From IMG/VR virus record IMGVR_UViG_3300005573_000052: 64,000 nucleotides of DNA; one strand, given 5' to 3'. Under the pieces are notes generated by a model. That model was given only the letters and a program-made list of their open reading frames with translations. It was not told the origin of the DNA and searched no databases. Source of the DNA: a virus. Positions within the stretch are counted from its first letter, which is position 1; the number at the start of each line of letters is the position of its first letter. This document shows positions 9,097 to 57,987 of the stretch, one piece after another. The position numbers and the translations under genes are program-made.

Positions 9097-9417
9097 TCAA
9101 TCCACCCACCGCCTGAACGTGCGCAGAAACGCCTCGGCTCGTTGAGGAGCAGTGGCTGGCGCGAACCTGTGGTCAACCCGGGTTCGCAAAAGGTCATAGT
9201 AAACGGCTCTAAATTCCGGTCCCCACGAAAGAAGAGCCCATTCCGCCTCGTGCATGGCGTTGAGGTCGGTGAGGTAATGCGGCACCTCCATCTCCTCCGA
9301 TTTCATGGTCCCAAGGGTCTTGGCCCCCCAAAGCATGTTCGGGTCAATCAGATCACGGCGGAAATCAGACCACCCGCACAATTTGGCGATAGCAATTCGT
9401 TGGGCTTCGGGGTTCAC
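9097..9417 (-). CDS. tandem paralog 3, phage ABA-sandwich-like protein
   Basis: MNPEAQRIAIA..CGW / VP.Y..DL.AMHEAE / QRAEAFLRT motifs shared with neighbours. Confidence 0.8.
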   Translation of the reverse strand: MNPEAQRIAIAKLCGWSDFRRDLIDPNMLWGAKTLGTMKSEEMEVPHYLTDLNAMHEAEWALLSWGPEFRAVYYDLLRTRVDHRFAPATAPQRAEAFLRTFRRWVD

Positions 9418-9767
9418 AGAGAGTCATCCTTCCATTTACCGATTGTGCGTAGAAATGCTTCCGCACGTTGGGCAGCAGTGGCACGGATGACCGGAAGCCA
9501 CTGCTGGTGACGGAGAGACATCATGCCCTTGTGCAATATGGCGTGCAGCTCGCGGTAATAATCGGCCTGCTGTTGTGGTGTTAGCACGTTCTCCGCCTCG
9601 TGCATGGCGTCAAGACTGGCGGGGTAATTGGGGACCTCAAATTCCTCACAGCCTATGTGGCCAAATGACTTGGTTCCCAATAACAGACTGGGGTTCGTCA
9701 AGTCTCGACGGAAATCAAACCACCCGCACACTTCGGCGATGGCAATGCGCTGGGCCTCGGGGTTCAT
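9414..9767 (-). CDS. tandem paralog 2, phage ABA-sandwich-like protein
   Basis: Same three conserved blocks. Confidence 0.8.
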   Translation of the reverse strand: MNPEAQRIAIAEVCGWFDFRRDLTNPSLLLGTKSFGHIGCEEFEVPNYPASLDAMHEAENVLTPQQQADYYRELHAILHKGMMSLRHQQWLPVIRATAAQRAEAFLRTIGKWKDDSL

Positions 9768-10087
9768 GGGGAGTCATCCTTCCATTTGCCGAGAGTGCGC
9801 AGGAAGGCCTCGGCGCGTTGGGCGGCGGTGGCGTGACAAACTGTCCAATCGGCATCGAAATGATGCTGGTGTTTGTCGGGGTGAAGCAGCCGCACAAACT
9901 CGCGGCGTTGGATCGCATCCAGCACTTGTTCGGCCTCATACATGGCATCGAGACTGGTGGAGTAAGAAGGGATAAAAACAGACGACCAATCATAGCCCCG
10001 CGTCCCGGGTCGCTTCCAATAGCCCTTGGCGTTTCGCTCCCACCCGCATATCTCGGCTATCGCAATTCGTTGTGCCTCTGGTGTCAT
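9764..10087 (-). CDS. tandem paralog 1, phage ABA-sandwich-like protein
   Basis: Same three conserved blocks. Confidence 0.8.
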   Translation of the reverse strand: MTPEAQRIAIAEICGWERNAKGYWKRPGTRGYDWSSVFIPSYSTSLDAMYEAEQVLDAIQRREFVRLLHPDKHQHHFDADWTVCHATAAQRAEAFLRTLGKWKDDSP

Positions 10088-12395: not shown

Positions 12396-13252
12396 CGAGA
12401 GAACACCTCATCCAAATCCAGAGTGACCACCCGGTCGTCAATCCCGGCGGGCCAGACGGCATGATACGAGTTGGTGGTATAAATCTCGTCAATGCCTCCG
12501 GTGTAAAGTGGTCCAGTTCCCTTGGTGAATAAACCATGAGTGACGTAGAGCACGATTTTGCCTGCGTTCTTGGTCTTGAGGACCTTGGCCAACTCCACGA
12601 AAGTGCGGCCTCCATCACACAGGTCATCAACAATGATGATATCGCGTCCGCCCAAGTCGGATGCATAGACCACCGTCTCCTTGATCTGTCCCGTGGCCAA
12701 ATCGCGCAGTTTGTCAGCGCGGATGAATTCGGAGTGCCCAAAATAGGCGGCGAGTGTGGCGATCTTCTTGTTCGCCCCCGCGTCCGGGCTGATGAAAAGA
12801 CCGCCGGAGGTGGCGATGCGTTTGGTCAAAGCATCAAATCGTCCGATGATATCGACTTGGGAGCAGACGCGCAAACGGTCGATGACCGCCCCGGTTACGT
12901 CACTGTGGGGGTCAAAGGTGATGACTTCAGCAAACCCCATGGCGTTGATGAGGTTGCCAAAGACCTTGAGGCTGAAAGCTTCGCCCGGAACACAAACACG
13001 GTCTTGGCGTCCATAGGGGACGTAGGGCAGCACCAGTGAGATGGGACGGTTATCAAGCCGGGCAAGCGCATCCTTCACCATGGCCAGCTCAATGATGTCG
13101 TTAGCACTCTGGAGACGAGCGGTGATATACTGGGTGCCAGCCTCAGCCAGATAGCGAAGGTTGGACGTGTCAAGCTTCACGCCGATTTCGCCGCCGGGGA
13201 AGAGAAAGGTCTGGAGGTTGAGCGATTGTGTTCCCTTGGAGATTTTAATCAT
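12392..13252 (-). CDS. prs: ribose-phosphate pyrophosphokinase-like protein (Prs; possibly NARP1 Adps)
   Basis: FPGGE, PYVPYGRQDR, DPHS, SPDAGA, IIIVDDLCDGGRTF, VTHGLF. Start set at MIKISK, just after the promoter. Confidence 0.92.
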   Translation of the reverse strand: MIKISKGTQSLNLQTFLFPGGEIGVKLDTSNLRYLAEAGTQYITARLQSANDIIELAMVKDALARLDNRPISLVLPYVPYGRQDRVCVPGEAFSLKVFGNLINAMGFAEVITFDPHSDVTGAVIDRLRVCSQVDIIGRFDALTKRIATSGGLFISPDAGANKKIATLAAYFGHSEFIRADKLRDLATGQIKETVVYASDLGGRDIIIVDDLCDGGRTFVELAKVLKTKNAGKIVLYVTHGLFTKGTGPLYTGGIDEIYTTNSYHAVWPAGIDDRVVTLDLDEVFSR

Positions 13253-13258
13253 GGAGGT

Positions 13259-13288
13259 ATGATAGCCCAATTGAGTCGCCGCTGTCAA
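13259..13288 (-). promoter_or_regulatory. promoter for prs-HAD-nadV (probably leaderless)
   Basis: TTGACA-N18-TATCAT, 6 nt before ATG 13252. Confidence 0.7.
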
Positions 13289-13659
13289 GCCGAAACCTGC
13301 CCGTCGCGCACGAACCGGTAAGACCGACCCATCAGGTAGTTCTCGACTTCTACGGGGTCAGTTACGACATGTGTAGCGTAACGATCCGCCTGCTCAGGGG
13401 TCAAGCCTTCATCCACCGCCCAAGCCCACCTCGCCGGGTCTATGACCTCGGCCCGAAAAAATACATCCGACTCGGACTCGATATGCCCAAAGTGAAGAGT
13501 GGCCTGTCGCGGCACGTCATCATGGCGCGGGCCGGTCGGAGCCCAATGAAGGAGGACGCTGGACCCAGTGAACTCCATTTGGGTGTGGAGGCTCAGCTCT
13601 GCGCCGGTTTCGCGCGCGAGGGAGGACAGGTGGGAGGTCAGGGTGGAGAGGGTGGTCAT
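13285..13659 (-). CDS. hypothetical protein
   Basis: ORF track; co-oriented with neighbours. Confidence 0.65.
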   Translation of the reverse strand: MTTLSTLTSHLSSLARETGAELSLHTQMEFTGSSVLLHWAPTGPRHDDVPRQATLHFGHIESESDVFFRAEVIDPARWAWAVDEGLTPEQADRYATHVVTDPVEVENYLMGRSYRFVRDGQVSA

Positions 13660-33638: not shown

Positions 33639-34054
33639 AAAATAATGCCAAACCGCTCCTCGAACAGCTCGGCTGACAGGGGGAAGTCAGTCTCGCACAC
33701 AATCTCGGCATACCGCCAGCCCATGATGCGGACCACCCAGTCCTCCTTCTTGATATCGCGCTTCAGGGCGTTCTGGAAACCGGCGAGCGACTTGTGGAAG
33801 AACGGATTGAAACTGTGGGAGGAGAATGGTGAAACCTCGACAACGATACCTTGGTTAACGTTAACTAGGTCAAGACGGAGGCGAGAACCGGGTATGGGTA
33901 GCTCCTCCAGCACGATATCGCGCTCCCAATAGGGCCGGAGAAACCGCTTGACCTCGCCTTGCGGGCCAGACACCTCCCGCTTCGGGTCCCAGTCGATGAG
34001 GTGGGGCTTGTGCGAGACGGTGCAGTCGCGGCCTTGAAGGTTGCGGAGGCGCAT
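33635..34054 (-). CDS. DUF559/Vsr-like PD-(D/E)XK endonuclease
   Basis: EELPIPGSRLRLDL...VEV...H...RD..K. Confidence 0.6.
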   Translation of the reverse strand: MRLRNLQGRDCTVSHKPHLIDWDPKREVSGPQGEVKRFLRPYWERDIVLEELPIPGSRLRLDLVNVNQGIVVEVSPFSSHSFNPFFHKSLAGFQNALKRDIKKEDWVVRIMGWRYAEIVCETDFPLSAELFEERFGIIL

Positions 34055-34061
34055 GGGCGAC

Positions 34062-34268
34062 TTAGAACAATTCGCGCGAATCCGGCGCGGCGCGCGATAG
34101 GACGGGACGGGGAGTAACCGGCGGGGTATACCATGCGGCCAATGCCCGGAGAGCGCGGGGCAATGGGCTAACGGTTAGCTCGTCATCCAACTCGTAACGG
34201 CGCGCGGCGCGGGCGCATTCGGATGGTTCTTCGTCACCAGAGGTAGAATGGGGGTTGCAATCGGTCAT
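34062..34268 (-). CDS. hypothetical protein
   Basis: ATG 2 nt after the upstream stop. Confidence 0.4.
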   Translation of the reverse strand: MTDCNPHSTSGDEEPSECARAARRYELDDELTVSPLPRALRALAAWYTPPVTPRPVLSRAAPDSRELF

Positions 34269-34270
34269 GG

Positions 34271-34537
34271 TCAACCTCCGCCAATATGATTGGTCGCGTG
34301 CCCGTCTGGGTGGCGCGAAACGGACGCAACCCATTCGGACCCGTCATAGCAGGCCGGGAAGTATACCCAATTGGCAGTCCAGACCATGAACGGGCCTCCC
34401 TTGGCTCCCCCCCATCCGTCGTCAAATGTGCGGTCAAGTTGCTCGTCGGTCAGGGTGGAGGAGACAATGTCGCCCCAGACCTCCCCATGGGTGGTCAGCG
34501 CCTCGATCAGCACGGAACGCCAAGTGATGGTGCTCAT
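34271..34537 (-). CDS. conserved phage hypothetical protein
   Basis: LDRTFDDGWGGAKGGPFMVWTANWVYFPACYDGSEWVASVSRHP is a motif I recognise from phage hypotheticals. Confidence 0.75.
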   Translation of the reverse strand: MSTITWRSVLIEALTTHGEVWGDIVSSTLTDEQLDRTFDDGWGGAKGGPFMVWTANWVYFPACYDGSEWVASVSRHPDGHATNHIGGG

Positions 34538-34550
34538 GGAATGGTTGTGC

Positions 34551-35714
34551 TCACTTGCCCCCGACCATATCGCGGAACTTGGCGAAGAGGTAGTCGGCCA
34601 CGTCCTTGCGGGATTCCAGCAGGGCATAAAGCTGGTTCATGCCTTGGACCTTCTCGGGGATGTCGGAGAAGCCTTTGTCGGATAGCTCCTTGAGGAGGAC
34701 CGGGCTGAGCGTGAACCAACTGCCGCCCTTGGTAATCAAGCCCCAGAGAAGGAGCTGGTCGGCGATTTCTCGCTCACGCCAGATGGCAGACCCGTTAGCC
34801 ACCCCATACTTGATGGGGATTTCCACTGTGACATACCGCTTCTCAGCGCTGCTCTTCTGCAACTTGACCTTGAGGATATGCCCGAGCGCAGGATTGGTCA
34901 AGCGGTTGAGTCGCTCATCAGGGTTCTTAAGAATCAGGTCGCCCTCATACCAGTTGAGGAACTCGGCGGTCTCGTTTGCATTGTGGCTGATAGAATTCCC
35001 GCCTGAGCTGTTACCTTGACGCGGCGGGGTCTTATCATACATATTGAGCTTGATTTCTGCCGTAACCTGAGAGATAAAAAATGCGATATGGCCCATCTCG
35101 TTGAGAGCCTGACCCATGCGCTGGAACATCTGAGCGGTCAACTTGGGTGCGCCAGCCACCCGTGCCTCCTCGTCGGTAGCCTTGTTGCGGTCATTCCGCA
35201 GAATCATATTGTTGAGCGAGTCAGTCACAAAAGCATAGCGACACTTGGTGGGGTTGTTCATGACGAGGTCACGCATCATGTCGATCCACGTCTCATAGAC
35301 ACTGTTTTTGAAGATGAGGATGGTGCCGGGAACCCAGTCCTTGGCGTCCGTAACGAGAGGGTGGCGGGCGCGGGCCATGTTCTTGGTGCTGAATCGCCCC
35401 TCTGCCTTGCACCATACCGCCCGACTACCGGGCACCTCGTCAAGGAACGTGTCCACCACATTGAGGACAAACGGGGTCTTACCCAGATTCGGTCCGCCAA
35501 GAATTCGATGTGCTCCTTCAGAAAATCCGCCGATTTCCATGTCAAGATTGAGTGAGCCCGAGGAAACGCGAAACGGAGGAACGGTCTCAGTTAGGTTGTA
35601 ATGGTCCTCGGCAGTCTTCTTGAGGTAAGCCTCCATCTGTGCGGTCGGGTCAAGGACCTTCTTGTCATCGGTCTTCTCGGGGGCGGGCTTAGCGGTGGAT
35701 TTGGGATTGGCCAT
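34551..35714 (-). CDS. recA: RecA/UvsX-like recombinase
   Basis: SSGSLNLD, GGPNLGKT, AEGR, VTDS, FISQV, GG...SH.A, IKYG, GGSWF. Confidence 0.88.
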   Translation of the reverse strand: MANPKSTAKPAPEKTDDKKVLDPTAQMEAYLKKTAEDHYNLTETVPPFRVSSGSLNLDMEIGGFSEGAHRILGGPNLGKTPFVLNVVDTFLDEVPGSRAVWCKAEGRFSTKNMARARHPLVTDAKDWVPGTILIFKNSVYETWIDMMRDLVMNNPTKCRYAFVTDSLNNMILRNDRNKATDEEARVAGAPKLTAQMFQRMGQALNEMGHIAFFISQVTAEIKLNMYDKTPPRQGNSSGGNSISHNANETAEFLNWYEGDLILKNPDERLNRLTNPALGHILKVKLQKSSAEKRYVTVEIPIKYGVANGSAIWREREIADQLLLWGLITKGGSWFTLSPVLLKELSDKGFSDIPEKVQGMNQLYALLESRKDVADYLFAKFRDMVGGK

Positions 35715-35761
35715 AAAAAGGAAAGGGTGAAAACAGTAGTATGAAGGGGTGGCAAAAAAAA

Positions 35762-36190
35762 TCAGGACCTGAGAAACTCCGCCACGGTGCGCGGGCGCAC
35801 GGGGGGCGGTCCAGCATAACGATAGTCACTTGGGCTGGCCGTGTCAACATCTAAAACCGGGGAAGAGTCGGTTGGAACTGCCCCGGGTTCCGGTTCAGGC
35901 GTGACCGGAAAGTCAAAGTAAAAGAGTAACCAGTCGCTGGCTAGCTGCTCGGCCCCCTCAGGCGTCCGAAACCACAGCATGGAATTGAGGCTTTGCGCCC
36001 CGAAGGGCAACTCGTGGTGCTGCCAAAAGTGCAGTTCCGGGTAGGTCTTCCAGAGCCCGTGCCATGTCGATATCTCACGCGCCCAGTCCGGTCCCTTAAA
36101 CCGCTCGAAAACCTCGGGCTTGATGTAGCGGGCAAGGATGGCCGTGATGATCTTGCGCGGGGGAGCTTTGGGGACAGGGGAGTCACTCAC
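35762..36190 (-). CDS. hypothetical protein
   Basis: GTGA overlap at 36187-36190. Confidence 0.6.
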   Translation of the reverse strand: MSDSPVPKAPPRKIITAILARYIKPEVFERFKGPDWAREISTWHGLWKTYPELHFWQHHELPFGAQSLNSMLWFRTPEGAEQLASDWLLFYFDFPVTPEPEPGAVPTDSSPVLDVDTASPSDYRYAGPPPVRPRTVAEFLRS

Positions 36191-36630
36191 GCCTCGTCCT
36201 CCACGTCCACCCATGTCAATTCACCCGGTTCGCCATCCTTGTCTGCCACGATTCGCACGCGTTTGATGGTGGCCCTGTATCCCGCCACCGGGAACCGCTT
36301 ACCCGCCAAAGCCTCCCGGAAACGACGGCGGAGCTGAGTGAGATTCCATCCGCGCCACTCGATTTGGTGCTGCTCGCTGTTGCGCTCAAGTCGGCCATCC
36401 ACCACCGCGTCGATGCAGGCGCTCTCGATAAGCGACGAGGGGTCAGAGTCGCTGTTCTCACGGATAACCGGTTCGAGCATTAGGCACGGACGCCCGAACT
36501 CGTAGCCCTCGTTTTGCCATGTGAGCACGTCGAAGGTCAGTTCATCGCCTTCCCGGATTCCTAACCAATCGCCAGAGCGCAACGTCTCTGCCGGTCCGTC
36601 CTCGGTCGTTTGTTTTTCTGTGCTGCTCAT
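36187..36630 (-). CDS. protein Y, copy 2 (start codon inside attC-B)
   Basis: Highly similar paralog of 36952-37353; first 22 codons lie inside the attC-like site. Confidence 0.8.
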   Translation of the reverse strand: MSSTEKQTTEDGPAETLRSGDWLGIREGDELTFDVLTWQNEGYEFGRPCLMLEPVIRENSDSDPSSLIESACIDAVVDGRLERNSEQHQIEWRGWNLTQLRRRFREALAGKRFPVAGYRATIKRVRIVADKDGEPGELTWVDVEDEA

Positions 36631-36678
36631 AGTGGTTTGGTTTTCGCGGCAGAGCCGTGGCTCATCTCAGTGTTCGGC
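36559..36678 (-). other. attC-like site B (120 bp)
   Basis: R'' GCCGAAC, L'' AGATGAGC, arms CTCTGCCG/CGGCAGAG, L' GCTCTGG, 6-nt spacer, R' GTTAGGA. Confidence 0.8.
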
Positions 36679-36869
36679 AGAGGCGGAATGGCCCCCGCTT
36701 TTTCAAGGGCGTTTATCACCCGTGGCAAAATGCGAAATGCGTCCGCGTCTGCCTTCGGTCCGTTGTAAAACTCGAAATGCAGCGTCAGCAGTAGCTCGCG
36801 TGTATTCTCCGGTAGGTCCGTCCGTTCGGTTGGATAAAAGTTGGACGTGCGATCAAAGACGGAGCCGAA
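36565..36869 (-). mobile_element. integron-type gene cassette X (305 bp)
   Basis: Begins TTCGGC and its own R'' is GCCGAAC, the exact complement expected for a cassette. Confidence 0.78.
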
Positions 36870-36962
36870 CCCACCGCCAGAGCCAATGACCACAGACTGT
36901 CCGTGGTCGGACGATTGTCCGGCTGTCAGAGCCGCCGGTGTGCTGCTGTGGTCATTGCTCAT
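36627..36962 (-). CDS. cassette protein X (start in attC-A, stop in attC-B)
   Basis: ATG within L'' of attC-A; ends LPNTEMSHGSAAKTKPL inside attC-B. Confidence 0.65.
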   Translation of the reverse strand: MSNDHSSTPAALTAGQSSDHGQSVVIGSGGGFGSVFDRTSNFYPTERTDLPENTRELLLTLHFEFYNGPKADADAFRILPRVINALEKAGAIPPLPNTEMSHGSAAKTKPL

Positions 36963-36976
36963 CGGAATTGTTAGGA
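36864..36976 (-). other. attC-like site A (113 bp)
   Basis: R'' TCCTAAC, spacer AATTC, L'' CGATGAGC, perfect 11-bp arms AATGACCACAG/CTGTGGTCATT, L' GCTCTGG, 6-nt spacer, R' GTTCGGC. Confidence 0.85.
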
Positions 36977-37353
36977 AGATCGACCCAAGAAAGGTCCCCG
37001 TGCTTGTCGCGCACGATTTTCACGCGCTTGCGGGTCGCTCGGTAGCCCGCCACCGGAAAGCGTTTGCCAGCCAGCGCCTCGTTGAAGCGGCGGCGCTTCT
37101 GTTCCAGATTCCAGCCGCGCCACTCGATTTGTTGCTGCTCGTTGTTTCGCACGAGTCGGCCATCCACCACGGCGTCGATGCACACGCTTTCGATGAGCGA
37201 TTCCGGGTCGGAGTCGCTGTTCTCGCGGATTACCGGCGCGAGCATCAGGCACGGACGCCCGAACTCGTAGCCCTCATGCTGCCAAGTGAGGACCTTGAAG
37301 GTCAGGATGTCGCCTTCGCGGATGGGGAGGTAGAGGGATGAGTCGTCGGCCAT
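36952..37353 (-). CDS. protein Y, copy 1 (C-terminus reads into attC-A)
   Basis: Paralog of 36187-36630; ends LPNNSDEQ. Confidence 0.8.
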   Translation of the reverse strand: MADDSSLYLPIREGDILTFKVLTWQHEGYEFGRPCLMLAPVIRENSDSDPESLIESVCIDAVVDGRLVRNNEQQQIEWRGWNLEQKRRRFNEALAGKRFPVAGYRATRKRVKIVRDKHGDLSWVDLPNNSDEQ

Positions 37354-37360
37354 GGTCGCG

Positions 37361-37603
37361 TCAAACCACCTTGGTCACCCGGTTGGTCTCACCGTCCACA
37401 ATCAGTGTCAATTCACGCCGGTTCAGCCACTTGTCCCGGGTAGGGCGGAGAGCCCGGAGAGCGGCCTTGTCCACGCCACCCGCGCCATAGTAGACCACGG
37501 CGCACTGCTGTTTGTGCGTCATGGCGATGGACAGGGCCTCGTCCACGGTGAGACCGACGAGGACGCGGCGGAGGGCGGGGAGAGGGAGTTTGGGGGCGGG
37601 CAT
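37361..37603 (-). CDS. small hypothetical protein (potato inhibitor I-like C-terminal motif)
   Basis: TRDKWLNRRELTLIVDG...VTKV resembles T.D.R..R......G.V. Confidence 0.45.
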   Translation of the reverse strand: MPAPKLPLPALRRVLVGLTVDEALSIAMTHKQQCAVVYYGAGGVDKAALRALRPTRDKWLNRRELTLIVDGETNRVTKVV

Positions 37604-37605
37604 GA

Positions 37606-38646
37606 TCAGGGATAAAGGTTAAACACGTCCGGGCGCGGCATTTTCTGCCCAGTCTCCTCCAAGTGGTAATCCGCCCTGCACATGAGTCTCATATGGTCCC
37701 CGAACGACATCCGCGACGGCTTCCACCCCAGCTTCTCGACCGCCTTGGCTGGGTTACCAACCAGCTTGACCACCTCGTTCGGGCGCAAACGGGTTTTGTC
37801 CAGCTTGACATACTTGCGCCAGTCAAGATTGAAGTGTCCAAAGGCCGCATCAAGGAACTGCTCGCCATGGAAACACTCGCCCCGACAGATGACAAAGGTC
37901 TCGGGGGTCGGGAGTTGGAGCATCTTCCACATCATCTCGCAGCCAAAGTCGCTCCAGTGCTCATCCCGGTAAAAATCGAGGGAGCCTAAGGTGAGTTCAT
38001 CCTGCTTGCCCAACGCAATCCGTGCTGCACCGTTGGTGACACGGCGGACGTAGAAGGATAGATTTCGGTCGCAGTTGGAGTGGTTAAAAAGCACCCCATA
38101 GGTCGCGAACATGCCCATCTGCCGGTAATACTTGACCCAACGGGTGCCAAGCTCCTTGCCGATGGCATAGGGGGAACGACACTCGTATTCGGAGGTCTCG
38201 TCAAAAGGGCAGCGAGAGGGGTCTCCACCCAACAGCTCACTGGTCGCCGCGAAGTAGACCCGGGTGGACCGGGACAGATTGTAGAGTGAGTCGAGAAAGT
38301 AAAACACGCTCATACCGTCACAGAGCACCGTGCTCTCGGCGGAAGTGAAGGAAAGACCGACGTGAGACTGAGCGGCAAGCAGATAGACTTCGTCAATCCG
38401 CGCGAATCGCTCCAACACGCCGATTATCAGGGACTTGACCGAGCCGCCGTCAGACACGTCGCAGTGCTCTAGGTGCAATGCCGGATGGTTGCCATGCTCG
38501 GCCTTTACCGAGTCCAAATTCAGGTTAGCGGTTTTGCGATAGGTGCCGATTACGGTGTAGCCCTTGGATAGGAGAAGGGAGGTAAGGGCAGAGGCATCCA
38601 TACCGGTGATGCCTGTGATGAGCGCGGTTTTGCTCGCTCCACTCAT
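37606..38646 (-). CDS. gmd: GDP-mannose 4,6-dehydratase
   Basis: TALITGITGMDAS, LAAQSHV..SF, RVYFAATSEL, FDETS...RSPYAIGK, LFNH, L.LG.LD..RD, RPNEV. Confidence 0.88.
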   Translation of the reverse strand: MSGASKTALITGITGMDASALTSLLLSKGYTVIGTYRKTANLNLDSVKAEHGNHPALHLEHCDVSDGGSVKSLIIGVLERFARIDEVYLLAAQSHVGLSFTSAESTVLCDGMSVFYFLDSLYNLSRSTRVYFAATSELLGGDPSRCPFDETSEYECRSPYAIGKELGTRWVKYYRQMGMFATYGVLFNHSNCDRNLSFYVRRVTNGAARIALGKQDELTLGSLDFYRDEHWSDFGCEMMWKMLQLPTPETFVICRGECFHGEQFLDAAFGHFNLDWRKYVKLDKTRLRPNEVVKLVGNPAKAVEKLGWKPSRMSFGDHMRLMCRADYHLEETGQKMPRPDVFNLYP

Positions 38647-38936
38647 ACCCCGCCCTCCCGGGCCATTTCCTCGGCACTCACCACCGGGACATCCCGCCAT
38701 TCCTCGCGCAGGTAGAACCAGCCGGTGCGGTCCGGGGTATATCCCCATAGCTCGCCCTGAGTTGGTTGGCTGTCACGGCGCACGTCGCCGTCCTGCACGA
38801 CCCAAAGCTGTTGAAGCCGCCATGGGATGATCCAACCCGGGCCAGTTTCTGCTTCTACCCAACGCAAACCGTTGGTCAGGTGCTCGAAACGGGGAATGTC
38901 GGGGGGCGGGGAGACGAGGGGAGGAGTGTCGGTCAT
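38643..38936 (-). CDS. hypothetical protein
   Basis: Overlap-coupled ORF. Confidence 0.55.
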   Translation of the reverse strand: MTDTPPLVSPPPDIPRFEHLTNGLRWVEAETGPGWIIPWRLQQLWVVQDGDVRRDSQPTQGELWGYTPDRTGWFYLREEWRDVPVVSAEEMAREGGV

Positions 38937-39331
38937 GAAGAAAATGAGGGGTTAGAGGTGAGCAGCTCGGGGTTCTCGTGAATATTGCCGATGACTACAA
39001 TATCGTCGTTAGTCGTATAATCGCCTCCGACCAAAAATCTTGACAAGAGCCGGTCCGACTCAACCTGATATTCGACCACCGAAATGTAGAAACGGTCATC
39101 TGCTACCCCCGGAGTATCACGAGGGTAGCGAACGATATCGCCCTCATAGATATCCCGGCCATTGCGGTCGGTCAAACCCGTGAACATCTCAATCTCCCTG
39201 CCGAAACCCGCGAGACGACACACACCCGGTTCCGGGTGCAACCAGCCGATTTCGATTCGCGGGTCATCAACCCAATGGTCTACGTGCCAGACGCGGAACT
39301 TGATGACTCGGATGTTATCGGGAGTGCTCAT
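38933..39331 (-). CDS. YopX family protein
   Basis: IKFRVW, MFTGLTDRNGRDIYEGDIV, VIGNIHENPELL. Confidence 0.9.
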   Translation of the reverse strand: MSTPDNIRVIKFRVWHVDHWVDDPRIEIGWLHPEPGVCRLAGFGREIEMFTGLTDRNGRDIYEGDIVRYPRDTPGVADDRFYISVVEYQVESDRLLSRFLVGGDYTTNDDIVVIGNIHENPELLTSNPSFSS

Positions 39332-39352
39332 AATAGGTGCTGCTATCTCACC

Positions 39353-39382
39353 ATAATAGCCCAATTGGGCTGCTTGCGTCAA
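39353..39382 (-). promoter_or_regulatory. sigma70-like promoter
   Basis: TTGACG-N10-AATTGGGC-TATTAT. Confidence 0.6.
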
Positions 39383-39385
39383 CCA

Positions 39386-39817
39386 CTAAATCTGCGCCAG
39401 TATCTCGGAACTCGCCCGAATCTTGGCTCCCAGCCCATCCACGATAGCTATCCCCAACTCACAACACACCACCGCCTCGGGTATTTCGCCCGCGAACCTG
39501 TCGCCGCCCTTGGCGAAGATATATCGGTGGGAATCGCCCAATTCGGCGCGGATGAGACGGATGGTAGCGCAGACGCTCTTGTCCTCGTCCACCGACAGCA
39601 CCACATCATCCACCATGGCCAGCGACCGGACTATCTCTAGCCGATCCTCCTGCGATTGAAACGACTTGGAACCCTTGAGCGCGACTTGGTAGTCCGAGTT
39701 GACGATGACTATCAGTGTGTCGCCCAGCTCCTTGGCGCGCCAAAGGTAGTCGAGATGGCCAATGTGAAGGGGGTTGAAGTAGCCTGAGGCGATAACAATC
39801 GTGGACATGAGGGGCAA
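39386..39817 (-). CDS. cytidylyltransferase-like protein (HIGH family; TagD/RibL/RfaE-II-like)
   Basis: SGYFNPLHIGHLDYL..AKELGD.LIVIVNSD, FAKGGDR, KIRASS. Confidence 0.88.
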   Translation of the reverse strand: MPLMSTIVIASGYFNPLHIGHLDYLWRAKELGDTLIVIVNSDYQVALKGSKSFQSQEDRLEIVRSLAMVDDVVLSVDEDKSVCATIRLIRAELGDSHRYIFAKGGDRFAGEIPEAVVCCELGIAIVDGLGAKIRASSEILAQI

Positions 39818-39840
39818 CAGATGGAGAAGTGGTTAGACCC

Positions 39841-39888
39841 ATGATAGCTCTGTCACCCACTCCTGTCAACCACGCCAATTCGCGCGAA
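39841..39888 (-). promoter_or_regulatory. promoter with upstream TTCGCGCGAA palindrome
   Basis: TTGACA-N17-TATCAT; palindrome at 39879-39888. Confidence 0.65.
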
Positions 39889-39896
39889 ACGGGTGA

Positions 39897-40490
39897 CTAA
39901 GCCCAGCCCCACCGCTTCAACACCCGATAAACCTGCCAAAACACACCCTTGAACCAGTCGCACCGCCGGTAGTTCTCCTCCCCGTTCAGGTATAGCGGAA
40001 GCCATGCGTGCAACACCCTGACGCGCACCTTGGCAGACCCCGACAAATCCAAAGCCACGTTGTAGGTCCGTTCGTCAGACTGGTCCGACCAATTACCCAA
40101 GTCCACGTCGGTTTCACTGCCACCCCGGATAACGCGCCCGTGCACGGTGATATCATGAGAACCGCCCTTGATAGTGGCGACGAACAGGCCGCCCGACACC
40201 CAGTCATCCGCGTAGACCTCGATATGGTGGGAGCCGTTGTTGATGTCCAAGCAGTCCTCGCGCCCGCCCGGCAGCACGCCCCGCACAATGATGCGCAGAT
40301 AGGAGCAGTTGGACACCTTGATGGTATCGCTGTGCTGGCCGCTAGGCGGATCGAAATAGCCATTGCGTCCGGTGTCGGGGTGACCCGAGACAAACCATTG
40401 CGGCCCGGTGGTATCAACCTCCACGACCAACCAATTGCCAAGGCTGCCATGCCAGCCCGCGAAATCAAGGGGGGCGTAGTTGATGTCCAT
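39897..40490 (-). CDS. hypothetical beta-helix-like protein
   Basis: EDCLDINNGSHHI...TIKGGSHDI repeats suggest parallel beta-helix coils. Confidence 0.55.
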   Translation of the reverse strand: MDINYAPLDFAGWHGSLGNWLVVEVDTTGPQWFVSGHPDTGRNGYFDPPSGQHSDTIKVSNCSYLRIIVRGVLPGGREDCLDINNGSHHIEVYADDWVSGGLFVATIKGGSHDITVHGRVIRGGSETDVDLGNWSDQSDERTYNVALDLSGSAKVRVRVLHAWLPLYLNGEENYRRCDWFKGVFWQVYRVLKRWGWA

Positions 40491-57320: not shown

Positions 57321-57613
57321 GACTGGTTCTCCCCTCCTGCTCGCTCGTCCTCATCCTCCGCCGCCTTACGCAGCAGAGCCATCTTGGCGTCGTCGGCTAT
57401 GGCGTAAGCAACCGCCCTTTCCACCGCCTCAACCATCCCGGTGTCATCGGGCAAGACGCAGCCCGCTTCAGACTCATCAAATCCCACGCATCGTCCCTCC
57501 GGTCCGTAAAGCGTAACCCAGCCCGCGCCGCGCTCAATGCAGACCTTGAGGACGTAGTCGAGGGGGAGATGTTCGCAAGCGCGGTCGAGAGCGTCGGAGA
57601 GGGTAATGCTCAT
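57317..57613 (-). CDS. hypothetical protein
   Basis: Overlap-coupled ORF. Confidence 0.65.
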   Translation of the reverse strand: MSITLSDALDRACEHLPLDYVLKVCIERGAGWVTLYGPEGRCVGFDESEAGCVLPDDTGMVEAVERAVAYAIADDAKMALLRKAAEDEDERAGGENQS

Positions 57614-57987
57614 TTAGAATCGTCCCACTTGCCAATGGTGCGCAAAAACGCCTCGGCGCGCTGGGGGGCAGTTACTCCGTGAGCCCACCGATGGATGGGG
57701 ATGGAGTTGGCGTCGTCGGCCGCGCGAACGGCGAAAGGAATGAGGTGCCCGTGATACTCCCATGTCTGAGACATGGTTAAAGTCATTTCCGCCTCATGCA
57801 TCCAGTCCAGACTCTGAGTATAGTTCGGCACGAACCTTCACCGTCCATCCACCGGGCTATTTCCGCGCAGACCCTCCCACGGATAAAGGCATCGTGGATC
57901 AATATCCACGTCTTGGCCCGATTCATAGCGGATGTCGGTCCAACCGCAGGAGGTGGCGATGGCGATATTTTGGGCTTGAGGAGTCAT
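57610..57987 (-). pseudogene. fourth ABA-sandwich-like paralog interrupted by in-frame TGA (57838-57840)
   Basis: ATG 57987 gives MTPQAQNIAIATSCGW...VDGR-TGA-RFVPNYTQSLDWMHEAE...QRAEAFLRTIGKWDDSK in one frame. Confidence 0.75.

Follow-up and report, generated by a model that had tools for sequence, protein, structure and literature searches.

According to integron doctrine, selection of the attC bottom strand points promoterless cassette genes away from attI, for expression from the Pc promoter. Integrons and CALINs of phages have already been published (Qi et al. 2023, PMC9892861), a CALIN being defined as two or more attC sites that share a strand within 4 kb, without intI nearby (PMC4889954, PMC9892861); no start or stop codons inside attC sites are reported in the phage study (PMC9892861). 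Translation across a recombination site is known from attI1, where the frames of ORF-11 and ORF-18 span the crossover and obtain their in-phase stop from the adjoining cassette (PMC8876359). With the attI1 ORFs, and also with short ORFs of attC sites, coupling to translation through the site helps the next gene to be translated, and attC hairpins in the mRNA are a hindrance to ribosomes unless they are translated through (PMC8876359). Cassettes that have no initiation region of their own, such as aac(6')-Ib, are found with variant N-termini (PMC8876359). Finally, in the reverse or 'inverted integrase' integrons of Treponema denticola, as described in the two papers through which they are cited here (Coleman 2004, in PMC4909258 and PMC4889954), the integrase is flipped and lies upstream of the array.

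The window analysed here, i.e. the whole stretch of 64 kb, is part of a large uncultured phage, with genes tightly packed on the minus strand (among them a UvsX-like recombinase, a DNA methylase, YopX and a GDP-mannose dehydratase). It contains two sites, A and B, that resemble integron attC sites in their RYYYAAC/GTTRRRY boxes (a consensus that the boxes of site A relax at positions 1 and 4), unpaired central spacer, variable loop and L-box stem, and in the extrahelical bases on the arm opposite the AAC triplet. As in integrons, arrays in relatives adjoin an integron integrase, with a probable attI at its 5' side, and the published phage CALINs likewise carry DNA methyltransferase cargo (PMC9892861). 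Unlike in integron arrays, however, the genes lie on the bottom strand, the attC precedes the gene and the array points towards intI, and unlike in integron cassettes, starts lie inside the attC while most genes cross the recombination point and stop in their neighbour's site. The window differs further from integron arrays in having only two sites, with no integrase found within the 64 kb.

ORF-11 and ORF-18 are small dedicated peptide ORFs that occur only at attI or at a few attC sites, whereas here full-length cassette proteins have heads and tails encoded by attC sites, with an exit frame that is standard across the family. The initial annotation had tentatively regarded the design as undescribed, which goes too far for crossover-spanning translation into a neighbour's stop, given the precedent of ORF-11 of attI1 (PMC8876359). 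As with aac(6')-Ib, the start codon and N-terminal residues come from outside the conserved body, but those are sporadic fusions caused by insertion context or attC loss, whereas here it is the usual design (30/46 genes). Integrase and cassette genes point the same way, as in Treponema denticola; in the accounts cited above the genes there keep the classical orientation to attC, whereas here it is the genes that are turned round, within a classical intI-attI-attC geometry, and the array, unlike in those reverse integrons, runs into the 5' end of intI.

The two sites and their family

Sites A and B lie among the genes P1, X and P2 (Table 1), of which P1 and P2 are paralogues. The stop of P1 and the start of X overlap by 11 nt (36952-36962), and ATGA at 36627-36630, in the loop of site B, combines the stop of X with the start of P2. 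No function could be assigned to P, X or their small neighbours with Pfam, PHROGs or the protein atlas, and Rfam gave no match at 36000-37500. For the gene after P2, GTG 36190 (in a GTGA overlap, seven bases downstream of GGAGGA) is a more probable start than ATG 36214. A sugar-nucleotide module (37606-39817, minus strand) adjoins the locus, with a GDP-mannose 4,6-dehydratase (224 bits) and a cytidylyltransferase-like gene (39386-39817, assigned by eye only), a pair that recurs in the related phage L011. Also on the minus strand, at 9097-10087 and 57610-57831 of the window, the ending ..AAQRAEAFLRT.GKW.. is common to four paralogous small genes, three of them in tandem and one at a distance.

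Table 1. Features of the locus, with positions in the window
Feature	Position	Strand	Size	Remarks
P1	36952-37353	minus	133 aa	By family alignment and sliding-window identity: 5' part native to the phage P gene, including the gene's own start; 3' part from a cassette copy ending ..CCT AA^C
Gene X	36627-36962	minus	111 aa	First 33 residues from site A; last 15 residues (after Pro-Asn) and stop from site B
P2	36187-36630	minus	147 aa	5' part: cassette copy of P with a 22-residue leader encoded in site B; 3' part: native P end, no site behind
attC site A	36864-36976	minus		AAC box TCCTAAC 36976-36970; GTT box GTTCGGC 36870-36864; contains P1 stop 36954-36952 and X start 36962
Stem arms of site A	36960-36946 and 36895-36880			One extra G on the 3' arm
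attC site B	36559-36678	minus		AAC box GCCGAAC 36678-36672; GTT box GTTAGGA 36565-36559
X cassette	36673-36970	minus	298 nt	C, site A interior, GTT box, X body, ...GCCGAA
Direct repeat	36230-36529 and 36995-37294		300 nt	80% identity; copies 765 nt apart

A total of 26 sites was collected and aligned, and a covariance model (R1) was built from that alignment. The common plan, in gene direction, starts with GCCNAAC, 8-9 unpaired bases (a longer spacer than in classical attC sites), a stem that often begins with GAGCC and a variable loop, and continues with the return arm (..GTTGGCTC), 9-10 unpaired bases and GTTNGGC. The AAC and GTT are invariant in 26/26 aligned sites, and approximately 25 nt of the 3' arm are nearly invariant as well. 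The proposed pairing is found in 90% of cells, with compensatory changes in 12/12 stem pairs; none of 500 shuffles equals it, and slid partners pair at 30-43%. A search with R1 returned 94 sites from 24 sources, on one strand per record throughout, and no sites in related phages with a single uninterrupted P gene.

Within the 64-kb window R1 matches only site A (73.2 bits, E=5e-16) and site B (80.6 bits, E=7e-18), which bears out their designation as attC-type sites in the initial annotation. Site A contains a 12-bp perfect inverted repeat and has a DNA fold with z=-2.4; for site B by itself the fold is no more stable than that of shuffled sequences (z=-0.7). With two sites 186 nt apart on the minus strand, and no integron integrase found by tblastn within the 64-kb window, the locus has the composition of a CALIN. 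Simple AAC...GTT motif pairs were rejected as a discriminator, as they separated neither strands nor loci in the window (0.92 vs 0.97 per kb). A loose 16-base pattern gave 45 loci, which is roughly the chance estimate, and only about a third of these are real sites.

In 43/61 bodies, the GTT box in front and the AAC box behind are perfectly complementary, compared to a perfect box match within one site in only 16/77 cases, which is the footprint to be expected if cassettes circularise through a single site. In the window, the boxes of the X cassette (GTTCGGC and GCCGAAC) are perfect complements, and around P the GTTAGGA box is complementary to TCCTAAC. Taken as a whole, we regard as quite probable the explanation that sites A and B are genuine integron attC sites, belonging to a homogeneous family that occurs in large uncultured phages beside integron integrases.

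Integrases and the polarity of recombination

In the recombined bottom strand of an attC site the exchange takes place in the AAC triplet and the extrahelical bases lie on the opposite arm, and this strand is richer in G:T pairs and purines (Nivina et al., PMC5027507). Here, the 3' arm (next to GTT) is the longer one in 23/26 sites, by 1-3 nt. The coding strand has 15 G:T pairs, versus 5 on the other strand, and a purine content of 54%.

TIGR02249 reaches or nears its cut-off in 4/5 viral records with sites (in one of them only with neighbouring segments added), versus 0/14 control genomes at the cut-off; one of the integrases, with 40% identity to IntI1, has a score of 282 bits (cut-off 265). 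In 4/4 integrase records the array is situated just upstream of intI, in the same orientation, which is the bottom-strand geometry of a classical integron. In 3/4 of these records an orphan AAC box, without a hairpin of its own, is found ~ 45 nt before the intI ATG. It follows the last hairpin and its gene and is the exact complement of that hairpin's GTT box, which is how an attI junction should look if the crossover lay at AA^C on the coding strand. Searches for an integrase were negative in L001 and L002, two distant phages with P, and in five fragmentary records. In Virus Rctr41k (KX853513.1, 4680-5678; L069) a gene annotated as 'xerD' is 39% identical to a phage integron integrase, with no R1-family sites within 6 kb of it. 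In L064 (record G007, 12672-13523) the integrase match spans only model positions 99-315, and the frame ahead of it has an attC-type leader start (MSHG..) and a C5-methylase-like motif (DLFCGVGGW), so that it looks like a truncated or disrupted intI.

From the extra bases, the G:T skew, the integrase geometry and the orphan box together, it follows that the coding strand is the attC bottom strand, with the crossover at AA^C, and each gene therefore carries its own attC, with the start codon, in front. We infer that the crossover lies between A36971 and C36970 in site A and between A36673 and C36672 in site B. The classical cassette layout, in which the attC follows a top-strand gene at its 3' side and the start lies past the core site, is not what is found here. 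The initial annotation had placed the crossover at G^TT; the same four criteria move it to AA^C of the box that was labelled R'', so that the labels R'' and R' were swapped relative to the recombined strand.

Also in favour of this polarity, Pfam domains are found on coding-strand frames only, in 4/10 cases compared to 0/10 for the opposite frames (a C5 methylase, an N6/N4 methylase, Mom and a further, weak methyltransferase match). The cargo of related arrays (L068, 3401-4300; L043, 1211-1906; L004, 288-968) includes a C5 cytosine methylase, an N6/N4 methylase and a Mom-like DNA-modification protein, and this suggests that phages shuffle anti-restriction genes through such arrays.

Reading frames through the sites

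The exit frame was judged from the upstream gene 15 nt before the box, for the 50 sites with a clear gene. AAC is read as a codon, as part of Pro-Asn, in 37/50 (p=5e-9), and 32 of these 37 exits stop inside the next site; of the others, 7 end on the TAA of a ..CCTAAC box and 6 are in the third frame. The Pro-Asn frame meets a stop inside 71/77 sites, versus 26 and 50 for the other two frames. In P1 and X, too, CCN AAC is read as Pro-Asn, with stops 18 and 45 nt further on. The distance from stop to start is between -11 and +4 in 23/32 cases across the family, with ATGA occurring 9 times, and by this proximity the genes would rank as translationally coupled pairs. The coupling to the previous gene that had been proposed is thereby upheld as regards the tight linkage of stop and start (ATGA and the 11-nt overlap), as read from the sequence.

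On the entry side, the G in GTT falls into the three codon phases 9/17/20 times, without a significant bias (p=0.12). Of 46 family genes, 30 have an in-frame ATG inside the site, with phases at GTT of 3/16/11, and 15 have a start codon just after the GTT box. Free-standing homologues of X (P0037 and P0038) start just ahead of a conserved SNFYPT core, and in neither the X nor the P2 body does an in-frame ATG, GTG or TTG occur from the GTT box up to the conserved core; untranslated leaders with the true starts further downstream were rejected for X and P2, as there is no start codon there. Across the family it is thus the exit frame of the cassettes alone that is standardised, not the entry frame, which fits a cassette with its own head and its neighbour's tail. 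Accordingly different tails are seen in the P protein, which ends in ..LPNNSDEQ in the window and in ..LPNVKDEPRPGARSA in L003.

The boxes and both start codons that the initial annotation described are present at the two sites, as are the reading as Pro-Asn, the overlapping ATGA and the absence of a start within either body. Its distances (93 and 66 nt) hold if the count runs from the A of the ATG as far as the first T behind the G, which is the third codon base in both sites. ATG 36630 does lie in the loop of site B, but ATG 36962 lies where the unpaired spacer meets the L-box stem and not in L''. Its central claim, that the sites hold the next start and the previous stop in a fixed frame, stands for the Pro-Asn exit and fails for the GTT entry, and the statistics on similar sites that it had proposed gave the same division, with a conserved exit frame only. 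The GTT frame rule is obeyed by just 11/30 of the genes that start inside a site. Nor would any body behind any site be in frame; leader and body normally form one cassette, and the modular interface is at the 3' end of the gene.

The design that we propose is the reverse of that of classical cassettes, with the genes on the attC bottom strand. In gene direction, a cassette would consist of a C, an unpaired spacer, the 5' arm, the loop, the 3' arm with its extra bases, the GTT box and the body up to ...CCNAA. Each gene would thus have an attC in front and usually its start inside that attC, its frame would cross the recombination point as CCN AA^C (Pro-Asn), and its stop would be supplied by the attC of the next cassette, beside or overlapping that cassette's start codon. 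Ribosomes that finish the upstream gene may melt the attC hairpin in the mRNA and re-initiate, in which case the array would be translated as a coupled chain whatever the order of its cassettes.

Origin of the arrangement and alternative explanations

The limits of the modules can be read from homologues. A metagenome contig (L004) has only 36963-36864 in common with the window (100 nt, 98% identity), its copy of the site A interior being located between unrelated genes with both flanks unlike the window. In L005 the X body is in common from 36870 onwards (76% identity), with a different site in front, and L003 has site B and the P body in common with the window, as well as P1 up to 36970; the site homologous to site B (L003, 394-513) precedes the P cassette there. 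These edges of homology place the boundaries exactly at the two boxes. The P body has the same upstream site in the window and in L003, and different downstream sites. Exact searches of viral contigs with the X-leader pattern and with a 29-mer of the window gave no match, and the phage collection was likewise without a match to window DNA 34000-40000 or to the P protein.

The two copies of site A, in which 4 of 6 bases after AAC differ (AATTCCG at window 36963-36969 vs AAAAAAG at L004 953-959), are not what a clean AA^C crossover would lead one to expect. The bases right after the AAC box of site A also encode the tail of the upstream protein. Since site A is found between different neighbours, X is found with a different site in L005 and the bases after AAC differ, some exchange also takes place around the GTT box, and homologous recombination within the conserved arm may be responsible. 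Site and body thus seem not always to be inherited together; the linkage of the site interior with the upstream or the downstream body can be followed in four homologous body pairs only, and these point both ways.

The local arrangement itself appears to be an insertion. In related phages P is one native gene that has a start of its own and lacks sites. With the P cassette of L003 at 467 nt (400-866) and the X cassette at 298 nt, the sum of 467 + 298 = 765 is exactly the spacing of the direct repeat, therefore it seems that a two-cassette circle entered the native P gene by homologous recombination. In sliding windows, the L003 copy of P is 92-95% identical to P2 over the first ~ 150 alignment columns and then switches to P1, with 88-98% over most of the rest, and 82% then 66% in the last windows. 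A 765-bp circle (P copy plus X) that recombined by homology into the native gene would leave the order P1, site A, X, site B, P2, and the direct repeat would be the scar of this integration.

The initial annotation had read the locus with classical polarity: a crossover at G^TT after the leader, the leader belonging to the upstream cassette, and any body translated in frame behind it. It can point to the site A interior, which stands in front of X in the window and of an unrelated protein in L004, each time in frame, to the X body behind a different site in L005 and to the identical phase of both window sites. Across the family, however, the phase at GTT is spread (9/17/20, or 11/30 in the expected phase among genes that start inside the site), the arm with the extra bases, the G:T skew, the integrase geometry and the orphan AAC box all favour a crossover at the AAC box, and the P body keeps its upstream site while its downstream sites differ, so that we consider this polarity unlikely. 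About as unlikely, if not slightly more so, is that the hairpins are mainly modules at the RNA level or for homologous recombination, shuffled at their conserved arms by the phage's own recombinase, much like the promoter-stem-loop cassettes of T4-type phages. Both ends of the sites do act as homology boundaries, the 3' arm is nearly invariant, a UvsX-like recombinase is present in the window and the local insertion itself seems to have occurred by homologous recombination. What such modules would leave unaccounted for is the co-occurrence of the family with integron integrases and an attI-like orphan box, the box complementarity (43/61), which is a footprint of site-specific exchange, and a stem that is kept by compensatory change instead of by sequence.

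That these are ordinary overlapping phage genes, with AAC/GTT motifs and hairpins by coincidence, is very improbable. Four-base ATGA overlaps are usual in related phages without sites, simple AAC...GTT pairs are equally common on both strands of the window and the fold of site B is unremarkable, but only two R1 matches occur in 64 kb, with the E-values given above, the mosaic junctions at the boxes are sharp and the sum of the two cassette lengths is exact. Stem covariation, R1 matches and box complementarity already refute it. Of the attC reading that we prefer, sequence and comparison show the sites with their polarity, the footprint of cassettes, the bias in reading frame and the history of the insertion. 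More tentative, and in our view somewhat short of an even chance, is the wider proposal of a family of phage integrons in which the recombination sites serve as a standard translational connector, with one exit frame, a stop beside its own start in every attC, a coupled chain in any order and a C-terminal tail that depends on the neighbour.

Cassette genes that face intI, start in their own attC and borrow the stop of their neighbour in a set frame are the opposite of integron doctrine. The locus also points to a way for cassettes to leave arrays, namely as a two-cassette circle that enters a core phage gene by homology, in a 64-kb window in which no integrase was found. Should this design be borne out, expression in these arrays would depend on translation through hairpins and not on the distance from Pc, and cassette order would also change the C-termini of the proteins.
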